NCBI GenBank assembly: GCA_025355565.1
Contig: JANXZK010000002.1
Span: forward strand, 15,238 to 79,237
From: a bacterium
GTDB lineage: Bacteria > Patescibacteriota > Minisyncoccia > Phycocordibacterales > PALSA-1337
Length of the DNA: 64,000 nucleotides
Reading direction: 5' to 3'
Below are positions 3,368 to 60,679 of this stretch, one piece after another. Position numbers and translations under genes: made by a program. The notes under the pieces were generated by a model. The model made no database searches. It saw only the letters and a list, made by a program, of their open reading frames with translations, and was not told the origin of the DNA. Within the stretch, counting starts at the first letter, position 1. Each line of letters starts with the position of its first letter.

Positions 3368-4594
3368 TTATAGCTCCCACGGGTATACAGTCATTGTTCT
3401 GTCTTTATTTTCTCCATATAGAGCCACTGTCTTGTAATCACCCGATGCATATTCCCTGGAAAAATACTTCATAGCCGAGGTATCTACGTTAGAAAAATTA
3501 AGTTTCGTTTCTATAGGCAACGGGATATTCTTTTCCTTTAGGATGAAATCTATCTCTCTTTTATCGGTTGTTCTCCAGAAATAAACTTTACTAATTCCGT
3601 GCTTTTTGATCAATTCCGAAAATATGCTTGTCTCGAAAATGTTTCCCAATGTCTCTTTTGGAAATTCCTTTAACCATAATATGCTCATAAGCCCTGTATC
3701 AAAGAAAAAAATCTTGGGTGTCTTGAAGAGCTCCTTCCTCTTGTTCTCGCTGTAGGGTCTAACAAGTTTGATGATGTATGTTTCCTCCAAAAGGAAAAGG
3801 TATTTTTCCACGGTTATCTTTGATAAGTTTACCGTGTTCGCCAATTCTGTCACATTGAGAAGCTGCCCGCTCTGCGACGCTAATACTTCTAACAATCGAT
3901 TGAACTTATCGATTTCTTTTATCTCCGCCAGATCCCTGATATCCTTCTTTATATATGTATCGATGATCTGATTCAGATAAGCGCTTTTCTTCTCTGTATC
4001 AGGGGTTAATACTATTTTCGGATAACCGCCATACCTGACATACTCTTCATAATGAGAAATGAGCTCCGATATCTTTTTTGAGGTATGTATTTCGCCCCAG
4101 TCCACAAAAAAATCTTTGAACAATAACAACTCATCGAACGACAGATTAAATATATCGAAATTCACAGTTCTGCCAACCAAAGAATCCTTGAATTTGCTTT
4201 TGATATTGAAACTAGACGAACCGGACACGATCAGTTTGATTTCTTTGTGATGATCGGCAATGATCTTGAGAAATGACGAAGGGTTCTCAAGGTATTGGAT
4301 CTCATCTATGAATACGAACAGTTTTTTTGGTGAGATCGCTAATCCCTCCTCCTTTAGATATGACAAGAACGACTCAACACCGTCATCCAAAATTTCCTTA
4401 AGCCGACTATCTTCGAGATCGATAAAGTGTGCTGATTCCCCTTTTTCTTGAACGATTTTCGCTAAATAATACAGAATATGAGTCTTACCGACTTGTCTCG
4501 CGCCATGAAGTACGATGATATCATCAGTAAACAAATACGGCGCTATTTTATCGATTATGATTCTTTTATACAATATTTCTGGGATTTTGATCAT
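3368..4594 (-). CDS. AAA+ ATPase of the COG1373 family (AAA_14 + DUF4143), paralog of the adjacent gene
   Basis: VLHGARQVGKTHIL Walker A, VFIDEIQ Walker B, and the same architecture as 2124..3248. It is strongly AT-rich compared with its neighbours. Confidence 0.75.
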   Translation of the reverse strand: MIKIPEILYKRIIIDKIAPYLFTDDIIVLHGARQVGKTHILYYLAKIVQEKGESAHFIDLEDSRLKEILDDGVESFLSYLKEEGLAISPKKLFVFIDEIQYLENPSSFLKIIADHHKEIKLIVSGSSSFNIKSKFKDSLVGRTVNFDIFNLSFDELLLFKDFFVDWGEIHTSKKISELISHYEEYVRYGGYPKIVLTPDTEKKSAYLNQIIDTYIKKDIRDLAEIKEIDKFNRLLEVLASQSGQLLNVTELANTVNLSKITVEKYLFLLEETYIIKLVRPYSENKRKELFKTPKIFFFDTGLMSILWLKEFPKETLGNIFETSIFSELIKKHGISKVYFWRTTDKREIDFILKEKNIPLPIETKLNFSNVDTSAMKYFSREYASGDYKTVALYGENKDRTMTVYPWEL

Positions 4595-4670: not shown

Positions 4671-5450
4671 TTATATCATCTCCGCCACGGTCTTCTCATA
4701 TTTCCTGAATATGAAGAAAGCGATGATTCCTGCGACCACGATACCTGCGACCATGGCCATGAAATGCCAGAAAGTGGTGAAGTTGCCATTGATGATCCCC
4801 TGCTTGGCATAATGGATGATGAAAGCCAATGGATTCAGCAAGATGAACTGCCAGTATTTTGTGGGGATGATAGAGAGTGGATATATGATAGGTGAAGCAT
4901 ACATGAGAACGGACAAGACCACCTCCCAGACCATCGATAGGTCACGGAAACGAACATAGAATGGTGCTGTGAGGAATGAAAAAGCCACGGCTAAGATATA
5001 CAGCAATATGGCGTACACGATGAACATGGCGATGCCTGCGATCGAAGGGATCTTGTTATATAGAATGAAGAAAAGCGCCAGGACGATCAGATTCATGCCA
5101 AAGACGAACAGAGCGTTCATGGTCGAGCCTAACACGATGGTCCATCTCGGCACATATATCTTCGTGACCAATTGCGATTTATTAACCAGAGACATGAGTC
5201 CTGTCATCGTCGCTTCAGAAAAGAATTGGAACAGAAGTATGGCCGTCAAGAGTTCCAATGGATAGAGCGGCGTCCCAGAATTCCTGAAATTGAAGAGCGA
5301 TGAGAAGACGAAGTTCAATATCGTGAACATGAGGAGCGGTTTCAAGATCACCCACACATAGCCCAAAACACTGCCATGGTAGCGTAGCTTGAAGTCCGTC
5401 TTCGCTATACGCATCACTAGTTCTCTGTGGTTTTCGTGGGTGGGGGGCAT
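4671..5450 (-). CDS. ABC-2 type transporter permease (Wzm/TagG-like polysaccharide export)
   Basis: Six predicted TM helices. The conserved ABC-2 N-terminus FKLRYHGSVLGYVWVILKPLL is typical of Wzm/TagG permeases. Confidence 0.8.
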   Translation of the reverse strand: MPPTHENHRELVMRIAKTDFKLRYHGSVLGYVWVILKPLLMFTILNFVFSSLFNFRNSGTPLYPLELLTAILLFQFFSEATMTGLMSLVNKSQLVTKIYVPRWTIVLGSTMNALFVFGMNLIVLALFFILYNKIPSIAGIAMFIVYAILLYILAVAFSFLTAPFYVRFRDLSMVWEVVLSVLMYASPIIYPLSIIPTKYWQFILLNPLAFIIHYAKQGIINGNFTTFWHFMAMVAGIVVAGIIAFFIFRKYEKTVAEMI

Positions 5451-34213: not shown

Positions 34214-34741
34214 TTACGAGGTTTCGTCCCCGTCGGGGGCTTTTTCTTTTTGGGCCTTTAATATGTTTTTTTGATCATTTATATAAGAGATAGCGGCCTT
34301 TGTCCTCTTTAATAAAATTGAACATTTTTTCTCTGGAGCCGGAGACAATATAACCCCCAATTTTCCTCTCTCCATTAAAAATCTTACCGTGCTAGCATAG
34401 TCACCGTCACTCGATACGATGATCGCCTTATCGAATGCGTTCTCGTATGCATCCTGTACCACTTTCAAGACAAGATCGGTATCACAATTACCTTTGATCT
34501 TACCTTCGGCATCATATACAACTTCCTTAAATATCAGTGTGAAGCCAGCCTCTTGAAGATCCGTATACAGATCTTTGTACTTTGGGATAAGCCCTATGAA
34601 TATATATGCCTTACTTACATGGTATTTTTCCTTCAACCAGACTCTGAATCTCTTATAATCCATACTCCATCGCAAACGCTTTACACCTCTATGCAAATTT
34701 GCTGCATCTATATAAGCATGATTTTTTTTCATTTTTTCCAT
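34214..34741 (-). CDS. NYN-domain (LabA-like) protein
   Basis: YIDAANL...IFIGL...NCDTDLVLKVVQDAYENAFDKAIIVSSDGDYASTVRFL matches PF01936 NYN. The gene is AT-rich. Confidence 0.7.
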   Translation of the reverse strand: MEKMKKNHAYIDAANLHRGVKRLRWSMDYKRFRVWLKEKYHVSKAYIFIGLIPKYKDLYTDLQEAGFTLIFKEVVYDAEGKIKGNCDTDLVLKVVQDAYENAFDKAIIVSSDGDYASTVRFLMERGKLGVILSPAPEKKCSILLKRTKAAISYINDQKNILKAQKEKAPDGDETS

Positions 34742-49575: not shown

Positions 49576-50634
49576 CTATAAAATCTTTCGATATCTCGCT
49601 CCCCTGCCTTGGCCGATCAGCTCAAGCAAGCGCAACTCGACAAGGCGCGCTAGATTTTTCTTTATACCTTCCCGGCCCAAGTCTTTCACTTTTTCATCGA
49701 GATCAGAGATGCTCAAGGACTCATCAGCCTTAAAGAGACCAAGGATTTTCTCCTGACTTTCTGCGAGCAGCTTCTCCGGTTGTTCACCCTCCATAAGCTT
49801 CCTAGCTTTATTCGCGTGAGTGATCAGTGAATCGAGTAGATAGTTAACCCAATGAGAAACATCCTCATGGTCAGTCTTGTGATCATTCTGCGTCTTGTGC
49901 AAAGCCATATAGTATTCAGCTTTCGTATCCTCGATGATTTCATCCAATGAGACATAAGGAGTATAGGCGTAATCGGACCGAAGCATGAGAAGATTTGTGA
50001 GTGCACGCGAAAGACGCCCATTTCCATCACTGAATGGATGTATGGCCAGAAATTCGAAAATAAAGTTAGCCACGACGAGAATTGGATGAAGTTCCTTCTT
50101 TTCGAACTCCTTCGAAGCCCAGCCAATAGCGGCTTCCATCTCAGATTTCACTAGATACGGCGGAGTGGCACGGAAGACGATTACTCGCTCTCCTTTTTCA
50201 TTGACTGCCTCGACCGCATTCTCACCAGCTTTATATTTTCCTTTGTGTGACTGATCCTTGGCGGAATAGTTCAGCAAGATACTGTGAAAATGCAGGACGT
50301 TATTTTCCGTCAATTTGAGATCTTTGTAGTTATCAAAGATTCTGCCGATAAGGTCAGCGTACCCAGCTACTTCCTGCTCATCTCTATTCCTGGGAGGATT
50401 GGATTTTAGACCACGCAAAAACCTGGCAATCTCCTCGTCAGTCATCTGAGCACCTTCAATACGCGTCGAGGCACCCGTCGAAGTGATAATGACAGTTGAG
50501 CGCAATCTTTTTAGAATTTGCGGATTCAGATTGATGCTACCCTTCCAAAGACCTTTGAATTCATCGAGTTTGGCTATCTTTGAGAGTATCTCCGGTGTGA
50601 TCCTAATCCTCTTATTAAAGCGATTTTCTTCCAT
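49576..50634 (-). CDS. Fic-family protein
   Basis: Canonical Fic motif HPFSDGNGRLSRAL. Confidence 0.8.
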   Translation of the reverse strand: MEENRFNKRIRITPEILSKIAKLDEFKGLWKGSINLNPQILKRLRSTVIITSTGASTRIEGAQMTDEEIARFLRGLKSNPPRNRDEQEVAGYADLIGRIFDNYKDLKLTENNVLHFHSILLNYSAKDQSHKGKYKAGENAVEAVNEKGERVIVFRATPPYLVKSEMEAAIGWASKEFEKKELHPILVVANFIFEFLAIHPFSDGNGRLSRALTNLLMLRSDYAYTPYVSLDEIIEDTKAEYYMALHKTQNDHKTDHEDVSHWVNYLLDSLITHANKARKLMEGEQPEKLLAESQEKILGLFKADESLSISDLDEKVKDLGREGIKKNLARLVELRLLELIGQGRGARYRKIL

Positions 50635-52887: not shown

Positions 52888-53946
52888 TCAGTTACCAATG
52901 AGATAATTATTGGCTGCGAATCTGTATTGATCGATAAATATCTGTTTGAATGGTGCCATTGAATTCAATTCATAAAAGACGAGGACTGCTTCGCGATAAT
53001 CATCTTCATTTACGCTTCTATATGACAAAGGAGCACGATCGTAGGCCAGTAATACCGCGTTTGCCATCAAACGTGATGTCCGCTTGTTGCCATCCTCGAA
53101 AGGTTGTATATAACTCAATCCGAGAGTGGTAAGCAAGGATTTTTCATAGCTCGATTCGAGTCTGGATACTGCCTTTGAAAGCTTGCCCATCGCTTCGCGG
53201 ATCTGGTACACATTGTCAAGTGGTCGATATATCGATCCCGTTACGCCCACAGGACTAGAGCGGAGTCCGAAATTCACATCCATATCTTTAACTAGAATTT
53301 TATGGATTTCTTCAACTTTCGGCAGAGTCAACTCTCTGAAATCATTGGAATTTGATCTAATGAATTTGAAAGCGTCCTTGTGATTCAAGATCATTTGCGC
53401 TTCCTTTCTGTCATGTCCTGACGCTTCTTTGCCCTCGAGGATGAGCTTCTCTGTGTCGAGTAATGTATATGTGTTACCCTCGATCTTTGAGGATTTCCAT
53501 GATAGTTCAATGATGAATCGCTCGAGTTCTTTTTCTTTTAGTGCACCGGAGATGCCCTCCACACGCTTTCTATATTGTAAAGTGAGATGTTCCATTTCAG
53601 CTAATTCTTTGACAGAGAGCAAGGGAACATGAATAGAGTCGAATAGTTCGAAATTGTAATCCTTGAGGCCGTATCGCGTATCAGGTTCGGTCTGATTATA
53701 TACATGAGCATCAATTGAGATATTTATTCTTCCGAATGTAGTGATGTTGTATTTTACAGATCGGCCCGCACCACTAGAAACGATTAGACCGGAATTCTTC
53801 ATGAGTGACAACTCTCGTTTTACGGTGATCAATGAAACGTCGCCCCCGCTTGAGCGCAGTTTTTCATGTACTTCTGAGGACGACATCTTCCCTCTTTCGA
53901 GAAAAATCTTCAAAATTAATAAGTGTGGTTGAGGGATATTTTCCAT
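52888..53946 (-). CDS. Fic-family protein with N-terminal winged-helix DNA-binding domain
   Basis: Fic motif HPFEDGNKRTSRLMANAVLL. The N-terminus has HTH-like SSEVHEKLRSSGGDVSLITVKRELSLMKNSGLI. Confidence 0.75.
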   Translation of the reverse strand: MENIPQPHLLILKIFLERGKMSSSEVHEKLRSSGGDVSLITVKRELSLMKNSGLIVSSGAGRSVKYNITTFGRINISIDAHVYNQTEPDTRYGLKDYNFELFDSIHVPLLSVKELAEMEHLTLQYRKRVEGISGALKEKELERFIIELSWKSSKIEGNTYTLLDTEKLILEGKEASGHDRKEAQMILNHKDAFKFIRSNSNDFRELTLPKVEEIHKILVKDMDVNFGLRSSPVGVTGSIYRPLDNVYQIREAMGKLSKAVSRLESSYEKSLLTTLGLSYIQPFEDGNKRTSRLMANAVLLAYDRAPLSYRSVNEDDYREAVLVFYELNSMAPFKQIFIDQYRFAANNYLIGN

Positions 53947-54060: not shown

Positions 54061-54516
54061 CTATTTCTTTGTCTCCTTTTCTGTCGTTTCCTTGATAGCC
54101 TCGGCGACAGGAGTTGCGACGGGAGTCCCTCCTGTAACAACCTCCTCTTTAGCATCCTTTTGGGCCATGATACGACGCATCTGATGACGAATCTCTTTGG
54201 CGGCCTTACGGCGAATGAAGTAGAGCTTGGCGCGACGGACTTTGGATCGACGGACTGTTTCGATCTCATCGATCATAGGTGAGAATAGTGGAAAGATACG
54301 CTCAACACCGACACCATCGATAACTTTGCGCACTGTGAATGTGGCTCCGGCTTCACTACCATGTTTGGTCGCCAAAACTAGACCCTCGAAAGCCTGGAGG
54401 CGAAATTTTCCCTTATCTTCCTCGATCTTCTGCCACACGCGGACCAAGTCACCAGAACGGATGTCTAGTTTCTTGCGGTCTTCGATGTTTACGGGGGTGA
54501 TTACCTTGGTAGCCAT
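54061..54516 (-). CDS. rplS: 50S ribosomal protein L19 with Lys/Glu-rich C-terminal extension
   Basis: [15 protein letters not shown]...[11 protein letters not shown]...GATFTVRKV is the L19 core. Confidence 0.9.
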
Positions 54517-54532
54517 AGTGGTGTGTACATTA

Positions 54533-55351
54533 TCACAATGATAGCTTTAAATCAAATTTTTTGATCGCTTTCTTAAAATCAGTAGGCAATGGTGCCAAGA
54601 CTGTGACTTTCTTGCCTTTAAGATCGACGAATTCGATCGAGTGCGAATGTAGTGCCAATCTCTCGAACCCGAGCGCCATAGGCATCTTTGGAGCGTATAG
54701 GCTGTCCCCTACGACTGGATGATTTACGGCACTAAAATGCACACGGATCTGGTGCGTTCTGCCTGTCTTCGGTTGCACTTCAACGAGTGAGAAATTCTCT
54801 GTAACTCCCTCTTCGTCTGAATTCTTGTCCAATCTGCGAACCGTCTGATCCCTCAACTTTCCATTTTGAATCTTGCATTTTACATTTGCGATCCTCGTCC
54901 AATAAGTCTGCGCCTCCCTAATATCCCCTCTCGCCGTTGGATATGCCGACCATTTGCGGAAATCGCTCGAGCTCCTGCCGATCGGTCTATCGATCGTACC
55001 GAACTCTTCTTTCATCTCACCCCAAACGAATGCCAAGTATTTTTTCGCCACGAGGCGGTCTTTGAACTGCTGTTTCAAGCTCGCGTGACCAGCCTTGGTC
55101 TTTGCGACCACGATCGCTCCTGAAGTTTCCCTATCGAGGCGGTGGACGATGCCTGCGCGATTGAGTGGATTGCCTTCACCATCATTCATCGGGTCGCCGA
55201 CGTTCTTTGTCTTTGGATAATTTTCGAGCACCCAATCTGCCAAAAATGGTCCTTTATTCTTGCCGTCCGAATGGACCATGAGCCCTGCCGGTTTGTTTAT
55301 AACCAGACAATTGGCATCCTCATAGAGAATGGTGATCTTTTTGTTGCTCAT
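54533..55351 (-). CDS. RluA-family pseudouridine synthase
   Basis: [16 protein letters not shown] catalytic Asp motif. Confidence 0.85.
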
Positions 55352-55399
55352 ATGTTGAATATACGCTAATCTAGATAGGAACGCAAAATGATCGAGTAT

Positions 55400-55472
55400 G
55401 CGCCCTTAGCTCAGTTGGTAGAGCGACCCCTTTACACGGGGAAGGTCAGGAGTTCGAATCTCTTAGGGCGCA
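55400..55472 (+). tRNA. tRNA-Val (anticodon TAC)
   Basis: GCGCCCT-TA-GCTC-AGTTGGTA-GAGC-G-ACCCC-TTTACAC-GGGGA-AGGTC-AGGAG-TTCGAAT-CTCTT-AGGGCGC-A. Perfect 7-bp acceptor, D-loop with GG, T-loop TTCGAAT, anticodon UAC. CCA is not fully encoded. Confidence 0.85.
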
Positions 55473-55603
55473 CCGAACGAAGTGAGTGAGGTGTGCCCTA
55501 GCGAGCCAACTGCTTGGCTCGCGCAAGAGATTCGAAAAGGTCGAATCTATTTCTGAGGACGTAGTCCGAAGAAATAAGAGACCTGTACAGGTCATGTAAG
55601 GAC

Positions 55604-55622
55604 CGAATCTCTTAGGGCGCAC
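55604..55622 (+). repeat. 19-bp perfect direct repeat of the tRNA-Val 3' end (CGAATCTCTTAGGGCGCAC; first copy 55455..55473), an att-like duplication
   Basis: Seen directly. The copies are 149 bp apart. The intervening 130 bp contain a 9-bp stem hairpin (GCGAGCCAA/TTGGCTCGC), a 14-bp palindrome (GACCTGTACAGGTC) and a third partial copy (GGTCGAATCT). Confidence 0.6.
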
Positions 55623-55674
55623 AATAGATGACGTAGCTATTACGGTGGGTTAATAAACATGATAGAATATATTT

Positions 55675-57129
55675 GTGGAACAACAAGAAAATGCCAATAA
55701 AATAACAGAAAATATTGGTATAGGCGAACCAATTTTGGTTTCAAGGAAAAAATCCACGATTTTCATTTATATAATTTTATTTGCAATGCTTCTGGCAGCG
55801 ATTTTCTTCTTTATTTTTTCTGGAATGGGAGCATCGAATACAACGATCAAGTCTGATGCTTTTACATCCCTAGATAATTTTGCACAATGTCTGAAAGACA
55901 AAGGTGCTCAATTATTTTGCCATTCCTGGGATTCTAAATGCCAAAAACAAAAAGCTTATTTTGGTACAGCGGCAATCAAAGTGCCTTATTTTGAATGCGG
56001 TATCCCCAATACTATACTTGATGAAACTCAGATCTGTAGGGATAACAATATAGACACTAGCTCTATCGAAAAAATAGCCCCAACATGGATATTTGCCAAT
56101 GGCGATAGAACCACAGGAGTTGTGTCATTAAAGCAGCTCGCTCAAAAAACGGATTGTGAATTACCGCAAGATATATCTCGCCCGATTCTTATAAGTAGCA
56201 TATCTACAGCCAAACATTCAAATGCTTTTGCTTTGTCTGAAAATAATGTTTTATACATAGTCTCCGGCTCACCATATGAAAATGCCCCCACATCATTCCT
56301 TCAGATTTTTAACGTTTCTGATCCTTCAAGACCAAAGCTAGTTGCTTCCGTCAGCACAGGATTGGATCCGACAGCCGTTGCTCTCTCTGGTAATTATGCC
56401 TATGTAGCTAGTGATAGGTTGATTCAGATATTTGATGTCTCAATAATAACCAAAACCCATCTCGTTAGCTCAGTTAAAACTAAACAGCAGAGCCATGGGA
56501 TGACCGACACTCTTATTGTTGACGGCAATCATGTCTATGAAATCGGTGACTCCGATACTCTAGAAATTTTTGATGCATCGAATCCTTCAAGATTGGTGCC
56601 AATTAATTCTATCGACACTGATAATTCTCCAAGTTCAGCAGTAATTTCCGGAGATTATATTTATATCACAAATCATAATTCTAATACCTTACAAACTTTT
56701 AACATATCAAATCCGGCCAGACCTTTACTCAGTAGTACGACCAAAACTGGACGGGAGCCACTTTCTAATTTTGTTTCCGGAAAATATTTATATGTTACGA
56801 ATGCCGCCTCAAAGACTTTGCAGATTTTCGATCTTTCCAATCCGTCAGAACCCATACTAATCAACTCTGTCGCTACCTTATATCGTCCAGTGTCGCTCTA
56901 TGTTTCCGGGAATTATTTGTATACCGCAAATTATAGTGTCAATGCGATACAGATTTTTGATATTACCGATCCTGTAAAGCCTGTATCCGTAAACGCCATC
57001 GATACTATGGATAATTACCCGATGCAGATTCTTATATCAGGTGGTTATGCTTATCTACTTGGTCATGCGACAGATATCCTACAGGTTTTTGATGTTTCAA
57101 ATACAAATCATGAATTAATAAAAATATGA
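55675..57129 (+). CDS. Membrane-anchored LVIVD-repeat (β-propeller) protein, strongly AT-rich gene
   Basis: N-terminal TM helix. At least 6 repeats fit the LVIVD pattern (LQIFNVSDPSRPKLVASV...YAYVAS; LEIFDASNPSRLVPIN...; LQIFDLSNPSEPILIN...; IQIFDITDPVKPVSV...). Confidence 0.6.
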   Translation: MEQQENANKITENIGIGEPILVSRKKSTIFIYIILFAMLLAAIFFFIFSGMGASNTTIKSDAFTSLDNFAQCLKDKGAQLFCHSWDSKCQKQKAYFGTAAIKVPYFECGIPNTILDETQICRDNNIDTSSIEKIAPTWIFANGDRTTGVVSLKQLAQKTDCELPQDISRPILISSISTAKHSNAFALSENNVLYIVSGSPYENAPTSFLQIFNVSDPSRPKLVASVSTGLDPTAVALSGNYAYVASDRLIQIFDVSIITKTHLVSSVKTKQQSHGMTDTLIVDGNHVYEIGDSDTLEIFDASNPSRLVPINSIDTDNSPSSAVISGDYIYITNHNSNTLQTFNISNPARPLLSSTTKTGREPLSNFVSGKYLYVTNAASKTLQIFDLSNPSEPILINSVATLYRPVSLYVSGNYLYTANYSVNAIQIFDITDPVKPVSVNAIDTMDNYPMQILISGGYAYLLGHATDILQVFDVSNTNHELIKI

Positions 57130-59063
57130 AAAACAATCATATAAAAATATATGGTATCTTTTTAATTTGTTTCAGTATAATAAATCCTGCAATTAATTTG
57201 TACGTAGCGCGGTACTACATGCCACTGGCTGCTATATTTAGTATTCCATCATTGTCTATTATCCTCACGATTTTCATAATTCCGGGAATATATTTTTATA
57301 GAATAGGCTCGTCCCCGAGACTCATAAATAAAATGCTCATAGTTTCCGCAATAATGGGCGGTATTGTTACTGTCTTTGTAACATTAAATATGCTCGTTAG
57401 CCTCGTATCTGTTTTTGGATCTGGTCATATATCTATATTTGGTTTATTTTTCTCTTTCCTACCCAAAAATAACGGCTTGTATGTAATGATTATATATTGT
57501 GTATCGATCATAACCCTTATCGCCGGTGTGATCATGAGGTATTTCGAAAAAAATGATATAACGACACCCGAACCAATAGTGCCTAATTACAAACCACATG
57601 CGCGATCCGTAATCACATTACTTGGTCTGGTCGTTATCTTAGGTGTATTTATTTTTATCTCTGATTTATCTGGGCAGAAGAAAGATAATTATATACTTGA
57701 TCAAACAGAAAGTAATACACCGCTCCATGTCCCAATTAACACAAAAGATAACACCTCGACCAGAATTTCTACAGACAATAGTTACACCACTGTCGAGCAA
57801 GGTGCATGTCAACCATTATCCTCTGGAGATGAGGAGAAATTTGATAATTTCTTAAGAAGCGAAGATATGGCGCGGTACGATTTTAATTTACCAGGTGTCG
57901 GTATAATAAATCTTGCCTCCAATGCGTGGCGCAAGGAGTTACTGGATAAAGGCGGAGATCCTTCCTCATATAGATTCAGTCAGTCGACACCGCATATAAA
58001 ATTTATGGATCTCAATGGTGATTGTCAGTATGATGCGGTTGTCACAATAGTATATTCTGAACCAGTATATCAATCAGAAGATGATCAGTTTCCTAAATGG
58101 GTCAGCAGACCTCTGCTATATGTTTTTCTCAATAATGGAGGAATATTTACTCCGCTTGATCACGTTAAGTATGAGAATGGTATGGTAATTGATTCTGTTT
58201 CAGGATCAGGTAGCACACTTGCAATTAACATGGAATTTCCAATCGAAAAAGGTGGCAACCTAAGAACACGAAAACTTTCATATGAAGTTTCATCAGGTAA
58301 ACTTACCTCGACTTATGATAGTTTCGACGATATAACGACTTGGTCTTCTGCGTGGGAATCTGGCGTTGATCGGATTTCAGGTGTCACATTTAAGTCTCCA
58401 CCAGGATGGGGAGCAGTAAGTGTTAGTTCAGAAAAACCACCGACAAACAAGGAAGAAGAACTCGCAGAAATAAAAAGCGGGCATATTCCTCTCTTGTCTG
58501 GCATTTCTCACACAATAAGTTTCGCTCTTGATCCGAGCACTGTCACGGTGTATTCACGAGACTACAGAGAGAAACCTCTTAGTGAGTTGCCTGCAGACCT
58601 AGTGCAACAATATCTGACTAAAAAATCAATAGTCAAAAATCAAGACGATTATTTACGCCAGCCGACTTCATTCCAGTGTCTTTCTGATGATCTTGATACA
58701 AAATCCGCCCTACTTCGCTGTGATATTTCTTATCAAAAAGATAAAAATGTCATTGTTAGGGCGGGAGTCATAGGCACAGATGTGCGTTATCCACCGAATA
58801 TCATTACAACAGCGAATATTGCACCAATTTCTACAAATACTTCTTACGGATTCATTACTGCAAAGAGCACATTACCCGTAGAAGAAGTCCTTGCAGAATA
58901 TTTACCAAAATCACTTTGGGAGGACGCCGCTTCGTTGGAAGGTGCTGGTCTTGTAGAACAAGAGTGGTCTGCATACTACAATATGACAAAGAATCAAAAA
59001 AGTGTACTAGGAAAATCCTTTAACAGGTTTAATGAGTTTATCTCTAGTATCGAGGAATACTAA
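57126..59063 (+). CDS. Hypothetical polytopic membrane protein with large C-terminal extracytoplasmic domain, AT-rich gene
   Basis: ~6 N-terminal TM helices, then a ~450-aa soluble domain. 4-nt ATGA overlap with the upstream gene. Confidence 0.5.
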   Translation: MKNNHIKIYGIFLICFSIINPAINLYVARYYMPLAAIFSIPSLSIILTIFIIPGIYFYRIGSSPRLINKMLIVSAIMGGIVTVFVTLNMLVSLVSVFGSGHISIFGLFFSFLPKNNGLYVMIIYCVSIITLIAGVIMRYFEKNDITTPEPIVPNYKPHARSVITLLGLVVILGVFIFISDLSGQKKDNYILDQTESNTPLHVPINTKDNTSTRISTDNSYTTVEQGACQPLSSGDEEKFDNFLRSEDMARYDFNLPGVGIINLASNAWRKELLDKGGDPSSYRFSQSTPHIKFMDLNGDCQYDAVVTIVYSEPVYQSEDDQFPKWVSRPLLYVFLNNGGIFTPLDHVKYENGMVIDSVSGSGSTLAINMEFPIEKGGNLRTRKLSYEVSSGKLTSTYDSFDDITTWSSAWESGVDRISGVTFKSPPGWGAVSVSSEKPPTNKEEELAEIKSGHIPLLSGISHTISFALDPSTVTVYSRDYREKPLSELPADLVQQYLTKKSIVKNQDDYLRQPTSFQCLSDDLDTKSALLRCDISYQKDKNVIVRAGVIGTDVRYPPNIITTANIAPISTNTSYGFITAKSTLPVEEVLAEYLPKSLWEDAASLEGAGLVEQEWSAYYNMTKNQKSVLGKSFNRFNEFISSIEEY

Positions 59064-59206
59064 TTTTATTTCTATTCATTAATGATGACTAATCACAAGA
59101 TGTCCCAACGCAAGTCTCGTCTAATTCCGTTCGAATAACGTTCCACAGCACACAATCTAGAGCCAAACATAGCGAGGACGCCTTGATCGACTGTGGCCTT
59201 GAAACC

Positions 59207-59232
59207 AAAAGACCTCATCTCTGAGGTCTTTT
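59207..59232. terminator. Bidirectional Rho-independent terminator
   Basis: aaaAGACCTCAtctcTGAGGTCTttt, an 8-bp perfect stem flanked by A/T runs. Confidence 0.65.
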
Positions 59233-59318
59233 GAGAATCGTATATCGATATCACCCTGACACCAATTTACCATTTTCTAATATCTGTTTACTGATTACCA
59301 TTTACCAACTGCCTCTCC

Positions 59319-59672
59319 CTACATCTGCGGCATAGCCGAAGGAGCAGCTGATCCCCCCTTCTTTCCAGAAAAACCCAAGATAGCCATGACGAGACCGAGG
59401 ATGAGGTACAACCAGCCAGATGCGCTGTCACCGAGTGTGGCGACACTGAGAAGCGACAAAATGAAGAAGATGACATAGATGATGCCGACGGTCTTCAACA
59501 TACTGACAGCTGATCTTCCCGCTGTTGCCAAGAGTACGATACCAACAATGATATGAACGATACTAGCGACTGTAGTAAAACCAAATACACCGAGAACAGG
59601 TGAAGCAACGAGACCCCACACGCCGGCGATAAGGAAGATGATTCCAAATACGATAGCTGATGTTTTTGCCAT
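59319..59672 (-). CDS. DUF4383-like small membrane protein
   Basis: ~117 aa with 4 TM helices (AIVFGIIFLIAGVWGLV...). The longer ORF begins at 59711. Confidence 0.5.
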   Translation of the reverse strand: MAKTSAIVFGIIFLIAGVWGLVASPVLGVFGFTTVASIVHIIVGIVLLATAGRSAVSMLKTVGIIYVIFFILSLLSVATLGDSASGWLYLILGLVMAILGFSGKKGGSAAPSAMPQM

Positions 59673-59790
59673 GTTAAATATATTTATTAATGATTGATAA
59701 TGTTTGACCAATATAATTGTACCACACCCAGATACGCAGATTATACCATGCGCGGCTACAGATCAAAGATGAAAACCGAAAATAATCTTG

Positions 59791-59862
59791 TCCCCTCGGT
59801 TGGAATCGAACCAACATCAACGGCTTAGAAGTCCGCTGTTCTATCCATTGAACTACGAGGGG
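59791..59862 (-). tRNA. tRNA-Arg (anticodon TCT), unusual C1:G72 acceptor start
   Basis: Minus strand: CCCCTCG-TA-GTTC-AATGGATA-GAAC-A-GCGGA-CTTCTAA-GCCGT-TGAT-GTTGG-TTCGATT-CCAAC-CGAGGGG-A. Perfect acceptor, D and T stems; T-loop TTCGATT; anticodon UCU. The 31-39 pair is an A/G mismatch. Confidence 0.75.
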
Positions 59863-60137
59863 GCTAGCGGTATATTAGCATTTATTATCGAACTTTGTTT
59901 AGAGACGCGCAGATCGAGCACCTTTATAGCATTCTCCAGTGAATTCTGGTCAAAAGGCAATCTACCGTTGTCCCTCACCTCTGGAACGATAGATATAGCA
60001 GAGTCGACACGATGATACGAACTCACTCCTACGATGATGAGCGTGATAGCGACGACGCAGGTCACGACACTGATGATCACCCAGTCTTTGAATGGATCCC
60101 TACCCATATAATGGATATTTGTCTTTAATTTGCTCAT
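59853..60137 (-). CDS. Hypothetical small membrane protein
   Basis: ORF with one TM helix (VIISVVTCVVAITLIIVGV). Its last 10 nt overlap the tRNA-Arg 3' end, so its reality or exact ends are uncertain. Confidence 0.3.
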   Translation of the reverse strand: MSKLKTNIHYMGRDPFKDWVIISVVTCVVAITLIIVGVSSYHRVDSAISIVPEVRDNGRLPFDQNSLENAIKVLDLRVSKQSSIINANIPLAPS

Positions 60138-60679
60138 ATTGATTTTATTGCACTGATATCGAACGACGCTGTCCACTCCGTATGCTGCTTACTCCCCTCG
60201 CTAGTCGTGAGGTCCATCCGAACATTGCTGATCGTCGTTTTGTACGGCAGATTCTCGGCTAACTGGAGAATCTTGAACACCGATCCCCATGATCCGCGCG
60301 CAGTCACTTTTGCATTGACATAGCCGTTCTTCGCCAAACTGCCATCGCCAGGTATCGTGCTATCGATCGATGCCACAGTAACCTGTCCACCAGCCCGTGG
60401 TCCCAGAGACTCGAGGGTTTCGATGAAAGGAACCACATTGTTGACTGGAACAAATGCCGAATACAACCTTTCCCATTCTGCAGAAGAATCCGCGTTCAAC
60501 TTCTTCAATAGTTCATCCTTGCTGTTTTTTGATTGCAGACTGGCGACCTCCTCTCTCGCACTGATGACCGCATCAGTCATGCTATGAACGGAACTGCTCA
60601 CATAGAAATACAGCGACACTACAAACAATGTGACCATGATCGAGAGCGATATGAGCAAATGATGGTGTGTATGCTTCAT
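60134..60679 (-). CDS. PilO-like type IV pilus assembly protein (TM + coiled coil + β domain)
   Basis: N-terminal TM helix, coiled-coil segment, and the position downstream of pilM/pilN-like genes. The 4-nt overlaps suggest an operon. Confidence 0.45.
   Translation of the reverse strand: MKHTHHHLLISLSIMVTLFVVSLYFYVSSSVHSMTDAVISAREEVASLQSKNSKDELLKKLNADSSAEWERLYSAFVPVNNVVPFIETLESLGPRAGGQVTVASIDSTIPGDGSLAKNGYVNAKVTARGSWGSVFKILQLAENLPYKTTISNVRMDLTTSEGSKQHTEWTASFDISAIKSI

Follow-up and report, generated by a model that had tools for sequence, protein, structure and literature searches.

A folded module tailored to the 3′ end of its tRNA lies in an insertion hotspot between tRNA-Val and tRNA-Arg of a Patescibacteriota genome

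Why does the 3′ end of a tRNA gene occur twice within 200 nucleotides (nt), and what is the DNA in between? The question arises in a 64-kb stretch of a genome of the Candidate Phyla Radiation (CPR)/Patescibacteria (contig JANXZK010000002.1; hereafter the window). A first-pass annotation made from its sequence alone had reported that the last 19 nt of tRNA-Val(TAC) are perfectly repeated 149 bp downstream, and had taken this for a remnant attachment (att) site beside an AT-rich islet. The repeat is exact. The 19-mer CGAATCTCTTAGGGCGCAC has exactly two occurrences in the 64 kb, one at the end of the tRNA (55455-55473) and one orphan (55604-55622, repeat 2), with starts 149 nt apart, and 0.02 such repeats were expected by chance with up to three mismatches allowed. 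A stretch of 151 nt was identical in three other assemblies (L001-L003 in our numbering of compared loci: the NCBI metagenome-assembled genome [MAG] GCA_043724765.1 and two SRA assemblies), indicating that the repeat is real and not an assembly artefact. As in an attL/attR scar, the direct repeat (19/19) is the 3′ part of a tRNA and one copy completes the gene.

The DNA separating the repeats turned out to be more than a spacer. A partial third copy had been described there, and GGTCGAATCT is indeed found at the position given in Table 1. Palindromes had been described as well; hairpins are present, but they are three (55501-55522, 55548-55576, and 55580-55593) and not two. Overlooked had been an inverted copy of the tRNA end, picked up by the repeat finder as two segments, GGTGTGCCCTA and AAGAGATTCGAA, which are held apart by the first and perfect hairpin (hairpin 1). 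Folded as RNA, the 151 nt starting at 55475 reached -64.9 kcal/mol (z -7.0), with the two antisense segments paired to repeat 2 and hairpin 1 branching off. RNAalifold kept the same structure when the window was aligned with two relatives, L033 and L037.

We trained a covariance model (R1) on the three copies found at tRNA-Val, those of the window, L033, and L037; it gave the window module 178 bits. Outside the training set, R1 found full-length copies at two loci, neither of which is tRNA-Val. In L005, the copy (1076-1248; 109.5 bits, E 2e-29) starts 7 nt past tRNA-Arg(GCG), and in L012 the copy (4999-5166; 80.4 bits, E 6e-21) lies about 20 nt past tRNA-His(GTG). Both carry arms of their own: the sense arm GATTCCTCGCGGGGGCAC and antisense arm AGGAATCGAA of L005 match the end of tRNA-Arg(GCG), and the sense arm ATCCCAGTAGGCACCC and antisense arm TGGGGTGCCTA of L012 match the end of tRNA-His. 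As a matter of scoring, the two arms of each module fitted their own neighbouring tRNA best. The trailer, the conserved strings, and the hairpin positions, on the other hand, were common to the module copies. The module can thus be described as a conserved backbone, comprising the trailer, three hairpins, and the strings TCGAAAAG and TGTAC..TGTAAG (TGTAC-N6-TGTA(A/G)G in the module alignment), together with two tRNA-tailored arms. The antisense arm copies about 22 nt of the tRNA end and is split by hairpin 1, and the sense arm copies its last 17-23 nt. In every module copy, the repeat begins within the T-loop and extends to the tRNA 3′ end. The repeat is therefore one arm, the 3′ one, of a folded and conserved module that is found at three different tRNAs and has its arms fitted to each, and calling it a remnant att site understates what is there.

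The structure is supported by covariation. In the alignment of all five copies, from which a second model (R2) was built, 92.9% of the paired cells were occupied by pairs as compared with 72.9% after shuffling. Changes on both sides were seen in 31 of 48 pairs, a count reached by 0/500 shuffles and falling to 7 or less when partners were slid, and compensatory changes backed all seven helices. The 9-bp stem of hairpin 1 was fully (100%) paired in each of the five modules, its sequence coming in four versions (one shared by the window and L033), and eight of its nine pairs showed both-side changes. Helices 1 and 3, which are the arm pairing, reproduce the acceptor and T stems of the adjacent tRNA. 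An Rfam 15 scan of 54500-60500 (E ≤ 1) returned nothing over the module; its two convincing matches were the tRNAs, and two others stayed far under their gathering scores. R1 found no match in 1.05 Mb of unrelated loci (viral and other-phylum). A scan of viral contigs for the backbone pattern gave 114 matches, approximately the number that we estimated by hand for chance, and none was upheld by the covariance model.

The distribution of the module was patchy among relatives. At tRNA-Val, it is present in the window, L033, and L037/L028 and was not detected in L004-L006, L043, or L050; at tRNA-Arg(GCG), it is present in L005 and absent in L006. The window, L033, and L005 have it directly after the tRNA, with no terminator between. 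In L012, a terminator-like hairpin separates it from tRNA-His, and in L037/L028 it lies 3.06 kb from tRNA-Val, just left of an orphan TTCGAATCTCTTAGGGCGCACCA. The module was also more similar between hosts than the neighbouring genes. Between the window and L033, whose tRNA-Val is identical to that of the window and whose second repeat is degenerate, nt identity was 86-92% for the module (86% overall, 92% over 116 nt) versus 78% for genes; between the window and L037, the module was 65% identical in nt and the RluA protein merely 44%. R2 added only a weak remnant in L004, reading outward from tRNA-Arg(TCT), with a trailer match of 13/14 to the start of the module in the orientation opposite to that of the window. 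The spacer could have been inverted, or the module could once have belonged to tRNA-Arg. The remnant sits in the 84-bp, seemingly empty tRNA-Val/tRNA-Arg spacer of L004 (6500-6583), which holds CGAACGGAGTGAGT and a hairpin with a CTGC loop, flush with the 3′ end of tRNA-Arg.

What could such a module do? The reading that we prefer, with a probability of about one half, is that it constitutes the attachment module of a small integrative element which targets tRNAs, here in an insertion hotspot. This element would probably be non-autonomous. It would recombine in the T-loop of a tRNA gene and supply a replacement 3′ end that keeps the tRNA intact, the original 3′ end being left behind as the orphan repeat. 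The recombinase would act in trans or have been lost, because none was found in the window by open reading frame (ORF) survey and motif scan, by tblastn with the serine recombinase of relatives, or by comparing part of the ORFs with Pfam; a check for an integrase, which the first-pass annotation had called for, was thus negative there. As a speculation, the arms might, once folded onto each other, offer the tRNA end in double-stranded form, much as single-stranded attachment sites do when they fold.

Several observations weigh against this reading. Relatives offered no clean pair of filled and empty sites for the module, L004 having the weak inverted remnant and L006 other DNA at that place. 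No recombinase was linked to any of the five modules, save a truncated serine recombinase in L037, and no circular or excised form was seen in the assembled sequences. The AT-rich block next to the module has neither flanking repeats nor a mobility gene. There are only five module copies, four of them sequence-independent, and the alignment used for the pair counts was fitted to the model. Last, a functional RNA would account for the marked conservation of structure just as well.

Such an RNA is the main rival, which we nevertheless find rather improbable. The module would be under selection and non-mobile, for example as a mimic of the tRNA acceptor and T stems or as a 3′-trailer element to which the tRNA 3′ end is bound or by which it is sequestered, and the repeat would merely be the 3′ strand of its closing stem. 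The compensatory changes in every helix, the mirroring of the acceptor and T stems by helices 1 and 3, the position right after the tRNA in the window, L033, and L005, and a conservation better than that of flanking coding DNA are all as this explanation would have them. Yet presence is patchy even among close relatives, and the hairpin in L012 and the 3-kb distance in L037 indicate that co-transcription with the tRNA is not conserved. Besides, the absence of an Rfam match speaks against it, and it is difficult to see how a single backbone could have come by arms that fit three different tRNAs unless recombination took place at tRNA genes.

The truncated gene in L037 (939-2261, minus strand) led to a family of recombinases. 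It lies between tRNA-Val and the module, encodes the Resolvase, Recombinase, and Zn-ribbon domains of a large serine recombinase (LSR), and is convergent with the tRNA, its last codons being the antisense of the tRNA 3′ end. An intact version of 497 amino acids (aa) with a YARKST catalytic motif occurs at tRNA-Val in L058 (304-1797), which belongs to the same lineage as L037; these two were the only loci with a Resolvase, Recombinase, and Zn_ribbon_recom gene at tRNA-Val. The family, of about 500 aa, has more than 7000 relatives (E ≤ 0.001). The best 120 of these (P0124-P0243) were 73-94% identical to the query and came from many CPR classes, and copies 90-92% identical adjoin tRNA-Leu and tRNA-Met. 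Further copies are at L052:73-1587, L053:5038-6450, L059:3001-4509, and L060:3001-4521. Almost all of the best 120 end in ..FPxWC followed by a tail like PGRDSNPH (..WC plus xxDSNPH and similar), which is the antisense translation of CCA, acceptor stem, and T-loop. The family therefore sits at the CCA end of many different tRNAs, as almost all of the best 120 do, with the gene convergent with the tRNA and ending within its 3′ end. A minority share tails that are not tRNA-derived, WCVYFTKSEPIFKTND.. and WCSILELVRTHFAA.., which may come from unintegrated forms. In L058-L060, a ~100-nt inverted copy of the 3′ end of the recombinase gene precedes the start codon. Viral contigs contained only two N-terminal fragments of the serine recombinase.

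A possibility was that the repeat and spacer are a passive scar of an LSR island whose recombinase and cargo were deleted, the far end being left next to the tRNA. The arrangement in L037/L028, in which a truncated LSR and AT-rich genes fill the 3.06 kb between tRNA-Val and the module with its orphan, seems to invite this explanation, as do the intact LSR at the same tRNA in L058 and the family-wide habit of ending inside tRNA 3′ ends across the CPR. However, the intact copies at tRNA-Leu (L059 and L060) had no orphan tRNA copy within 4.4 kb, and the flanks of intact copies showed no significant similarity to the module. This suggested that in the L037 lineage the recombinase, which always adjoins the CCA end, probably inserted between tRNA-Val and a pre-existing module. 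Furthermore, a passive scar would not retain seven helices through compensatory change, nor would it be met again right at the ends of three different tRNAs where tblastn detected no LSR fragment. We consider this scenario unlikely, and less likely than a functional RNA. We had also tried the module as the distal end of a recombinase element. This was set back to the status of a rival, as the resemblances noted by eye (a CGAACG.. motif, the CTGC-loop hairpin, and the trailer compared with recombinase 3′ coding DNA) were not significant against the flanks of intact copies, and orphan repeats were missing. The L037/L028 island (L037:2062-3627) also holds two genes of GC 31-35% (202 aa, and a 277-aa membrane protein) without family match, which replace the 5′ end of the serine recombinase and are another AT-rich membrane cargo at the same hotspot.

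We next turned to the DNA beyond repeat 2. The two genes there had been called far more AT-rich than the rest, and GC is indeed not uniform along the window: at 0.373 and 0.381, the two genes are both within the bottom four of 57 ORFs. The block that they form (55623-59310, right end approximate within 59305-59318) has GC 0.377 as compared with 0.457 ± 0.018 (minimum 0.403) in 264 sliding windows of the same length, which makes it the most AT-rich 3.7 kb of the window, ~4.4 standard deviations under the mean. The closest relative compared, L033 (RluA 80% and L19 89% identical), lacks both genes. There, the orphan is followed by 14 nt and then by the stop codon of a DUF4383 gene, so that one breakpoint coincides with the 3′ boundary of the orphan and the other with this stop codon, and the block is a lineage-specific insertion. 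The block thus combines deviating composition with absence from a close relative that has conserved flanks, and the proposal of a genomic islet with an empty site in relatives held for these two genes. Its link to the att-type repeat held in part: the extent of the repeat from T-loop to 3′ end fits, but the islet lies outside the repeat pair, distal to repeat 2. A search for a third, degenerate copy of the tRNA end on the far side of the block was negative (Smith-Waterman score 16, reached by 117/500 shuffles). The block is a separate insertion of later date, placed precisely where the orphan ends on its outer side, and this position hints that the tRNA-like end may have served as target once more. 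No terminal repeats of note surround it besides a perfect 14-nt inverted pair, TTTTGGTTTCAAGG at 55733-55746 and CCTTGAAACCAAAA at 59197-59210, which lies ~110 nt inside the left and ~100 nt inside the right boundary and for which we estimated by hand ~0.03 occurrences by chance.

With the block in view, it can be asked whether the repeat is a product of chance or misassembly and the low GC ordinary variation within the genome. Two other ORFs of the window (3368-4594 and 34214-34741) have similarly low GC, as this would predict. Against it stand the expectation of 0.02 for the repeat, its identity in three other assemblies, the homologous modules in other genomes, and a block that is both ~4.4 standard deviations below the mean and missing from L033. 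We give this explanation almost no credence.

The contents of the block were largely as first annotated. The first gene encodes an LVIVD-repeat β-propeller protein, matched by PF08309 in three stretches (94.3 bits versus a cut-off of 20.2). It counts 484 aa from a GTG start (gene callers give 447 aa), has one hydrophobic segment at residues 29-47, and has 852 relatives, the nearest non-self homologue being 39% identical. The second, described as a six-transmembrane protein with a large further domain, has 5-6 hydrophobic or transmembrane segments in residues 1-180 followed by ~465 aa. This 645-aa protein had no match in Pfam, PHROG, or PADLOC and only three relatives among 5.8e9 proteins, and its AlphaFold2 model (pLDDT 32) was unusable for fold. 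The two genes had been seen as one surface module, which did not hold. In L015 (501-2453) and L016 (273-2117), the 645-aa gene stands alone, without the LVIVD gene, and homology ends within ~20 nt of it. Its GC was 0.379 in all three contexts, in surroundings of 0.46 (window), 0.50 (L015), and 0.28 (L016). This suggests a gene-sized unit that may move between hosts, and points to a two-gene block that is a mosaic of separately travelling genes. The strong bidirectional terminator reported at the end of the block was recovered, with a 12-bp stem and -19.9 and -20.4 kcal/mol (z -4.2 and -4.5) on the two strands. The block is, however, not bounded directly by tRNA-Arg, as a DUF4383-like gene intervenes after the terminator (Table 1).

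The same interval varied widely in relatives. The RluA-type gene served as synteny anchor: it is the conserved left flank, syntenic in L004-L012, L033, L046, and L058, and a search with it led to CPR/Patescibacteria MAGs. In these, tRNA-Val and tRNA-Arg(TCT) are adjacent, and convergent in all but L012. Their distance is 20 bp in L012, 84 bp in L004, ~0.5-0.6 kb with a DUF378 or DUF4383 gene in L008, L010, L043, and L050, 1.1-1.2 kb with a secreted Gly-rich PG-binding-domain protein in L005, L006, and L049, 2.7 kb with an 811-aa secreted protein in L046, and 4.3 kb in the window. DUF4383 homologues hold the same position in L010, L043, L050, and L033; the DUF4383-like gene is the ancestral occupant of the interval. 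The integration hotspot proposed at first is borne out, as the interval ranges from 20 bp to 4.3 kb with differing secreted or membrane genes: it is an insertion hotspot for surface-protein genes.

Other tRNA-end copies were noticed at this pair. In L006 (8487-8625) and L049, the last 37 nt of tRNA-Arg(TCT), from anticodon loop to 3′ end, are duplicated exactly 29 nt downstream, with a degenerate homologue in L050 (~880-1000); here, too, is an att-like repeat, now at the partner of tRNA-Val. On the 5′ side of tRNA-Val, a 73-nt unit is in tandem in L005 (9792-9940) and single in L006 (9880-9945). It consists of the first 12 nt of the tRNA, GCGCCCTTAGCT, then a hairpin, then a degenerate acceptor 3′ strand, and resembles a mini tRNA-like pseudo-copy. 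Matches to a 21-mer were also sought elsewhere. An exact scan of viral contigs gave none, and the 33 matches in metagenomes were mostly tRNA-Arg(ACG) genes or anticodon-loop att fragments of unrelated phyla, irrelevant to this lineage. Among them, L031 (7324-11293) and L041/L044 (contig Ga0172371_10003469), from unrelated bacteria, have a tRNA-Arg(ACG) with the same 21-mer 3′ end and orphan copies, from anticodon loop to 3′ end, 3.9 kb and ~10.5 kb away, respectively. These are ordinary tRNA-integrated islands and coincidental matches.

How does the module compare with known systems? Williams reportedly sorted tRNA-gene attachment sites into sublocation classes in 2002. With the att sites of P4-type and related tyrosine integrases, the locus shares a direct repeat that is the tRNA 3′ part from the start of the T-loop, with one copy completing the gene, as well as adjoining variable DNA whose presence differs among relatives. 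It differs from them in that an integrase was not detected, the repeats are a mere ~130 nt apart, and the cargo is outside the pair; moreover, the inter-repeat DNA is a conserved multi-helix structure with an antisense copy, and the same backbone occurs at three tRNAs. Cis-mobilizable elements (CIMEs) are att-flanked and devoid of recombination genes; they are kilobases long and derive from integrative and conjugative elements with a known integrase. Like them, the module has attL- and attR-like flanks and no recombinase of its own, and it could be mobilised in trans. Unlike them, its unit is ~150 nt, no partner recombinase was found for it, and its mobility is putative.

Integron attC sites and the attP(+) hairpin of CTX phage offer another parallel. 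They, too, are imperfect palindromes of ~60-150 nt with structure conserved over sequence, and double-stranded recombination sites would be restored when their two inverted copies pair. The module arms, however, copy a tRNA 3′ end and not dif or an R-box core. The comparison concerns a possible way of working and implies no membership; no link to IntI or XerCD was seen, and none was searched for. As to large serine integrases (phiC31, Bxb1, and Ccr of SCCmec), relatives carry a protein with Resolvase, Recombinase, and Zn-ribbon domains at tRNA-Val, and this recombinase resembles Ccr at rlmH in choosing a conserved gene and inserting at its 3′ end. In contrast, the window has no such gene, and the intact copies compared make no long direct repeats. 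The sites usually reported for serine integrases lie within protein genes, not at tRNAs.

Islets linked to tRNAs and att repeats are already known. The structured, tRNA-tailored module is not in Rfam, and there is a substantial chance that it is a new class of element. In the literature searched, of which coverage was incomplete, we found no description of the module or of an association of CPR serine recombinases with tRNAs. A bolder proposal, which we put forward tentatively, is that the module belongs to an undescribed class of structured elements that would specify a tRNA 3′ end through paired sense and antisense arms, either as the site at which a miniature integrative element would attach, in folded form, or as a guide-like or decoy RNA. 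It might work together with the CPR-wide serine recombinases as a tRNA-end-targeting integration system that makes tRNA flanks hotspots for cargo.

CPR/Patescibacteria have tiny genomes, and little is understood about how genes for surface and host-interaction functions enter them. The locus is a concrete gateway: a conserved module next to a tRNA, arms rewritten for each tRNA, and unrelated secreted or membrane genes turning over beside it. Should the module prove to be an attachment site or a guide, target choice would be spelled out by its sense and antisense arms in a simple and readable code. Since serine recombinases serve as genome-engineering tools, tRNA CCA ends would be an unusual class of target. 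If the module is an RNA, it would have a new tRNA-mimicking fold.

Table 1. Features of the tRNA-Val/tRNA-Arg locus, in window coordinates.
Feature	Position	Strand	Evidence
RluA-type pseudouridine synthase gene	54533..55351	-	Pfam PF00849, E 2.4e-31
tRNA-Val(TAC)	55400..55474	+	ARAGORN; Rfam tRNA model, 67.7 bits
Repeat copy 1, final 19-22 nt of tRNA-Val	55453-55474	+	part of the tRNA-Val gene
Structured tRNA-3′-end module, seven helices, 3′ arm = repeat 2	55475..55622	+	covariance model, fold, covariation
Trailer motif GAACGAAGTGAGTGA, directly 3′ of tRNA end	55475..55489	+	kept in L033, L037, and L005 (alignment)
Antisense arm a, GGTGTGCCCTA, complementary to tRNA-Val acceptor 3′ strand	55490..55500	+	inverted repeat; consensus helix 1; arm scoring
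Hairpin 1, GCGAGCCAA-CTGC-TTGGCTCGC, dividing the antisense copy	55501..55524	+	inverted repeat; covarying 9-bp stem
Antisense arm b, AAGAGATTCGAA, complementary to tRNA-Val T-loop and T-stem 3′ strand	55525..55536	+	inverted repeats, 100% complementary
Inner backbone of module	55537..55603	+	repeat finder, fold, consensus structure, covariation; conserved strings TCGAAAAG and TGTAC-N6-TGTA(A/G)G (alignment)
Inner backbone: partial sense copy GGTCGAATCT	55539-55548		
Inner backbone: helix 4 (AGGTC/GACCT)			
Inner backbone: hairpin 2	55548-55576		
Inner backbone: palindrome GACCTGTACAGGTC	55580-55593		
Inner backbone: helix 7	55590-55604		
Repeat 2 (orphan), sense copy of last 19 nt of tRNA-Val	55604..55622	+	exact match; helices 1 and 3
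AT-rich inserted block, ~3.69 kb	55623..59310	+	missing from L033; GC deviation
LVIVD-repeat β-propeller gene, N-terminal membrane anchor	55675..57129	+	Pfam LVIVD, E 2.6e-27
645-aa ORFan membrane protein gene	57126..59063	+	hydrophobic segments; no family match
Bidirectional intrinsic terminator, CAAAAGACCTCA-tctc-TGAGGTCTTTTG	59206..59233	both	folding energy
DUF4383-like small membrane protein gene	59319..59711	-	Pfam DUF4383, E 9e-6, just under gathering score
tRNA-Arg(TCT), convergent with tRNA-Val	59790..59862	-	ARAGORN, Rfam; convergent pair kept in relatives

Elsewhere in the window, a few genes also looked accessory. The two low-GC ORFs mentioned above, both on the minus strand, encode an AAA_14/DUF4143 ATPase (3368-4594, GC 0.374) and an NYN-domain protein (34214-34741, GC 0.383), and two Fic-domain proteins are encoded on the same strand at 49576-50634 and 52888-53946.

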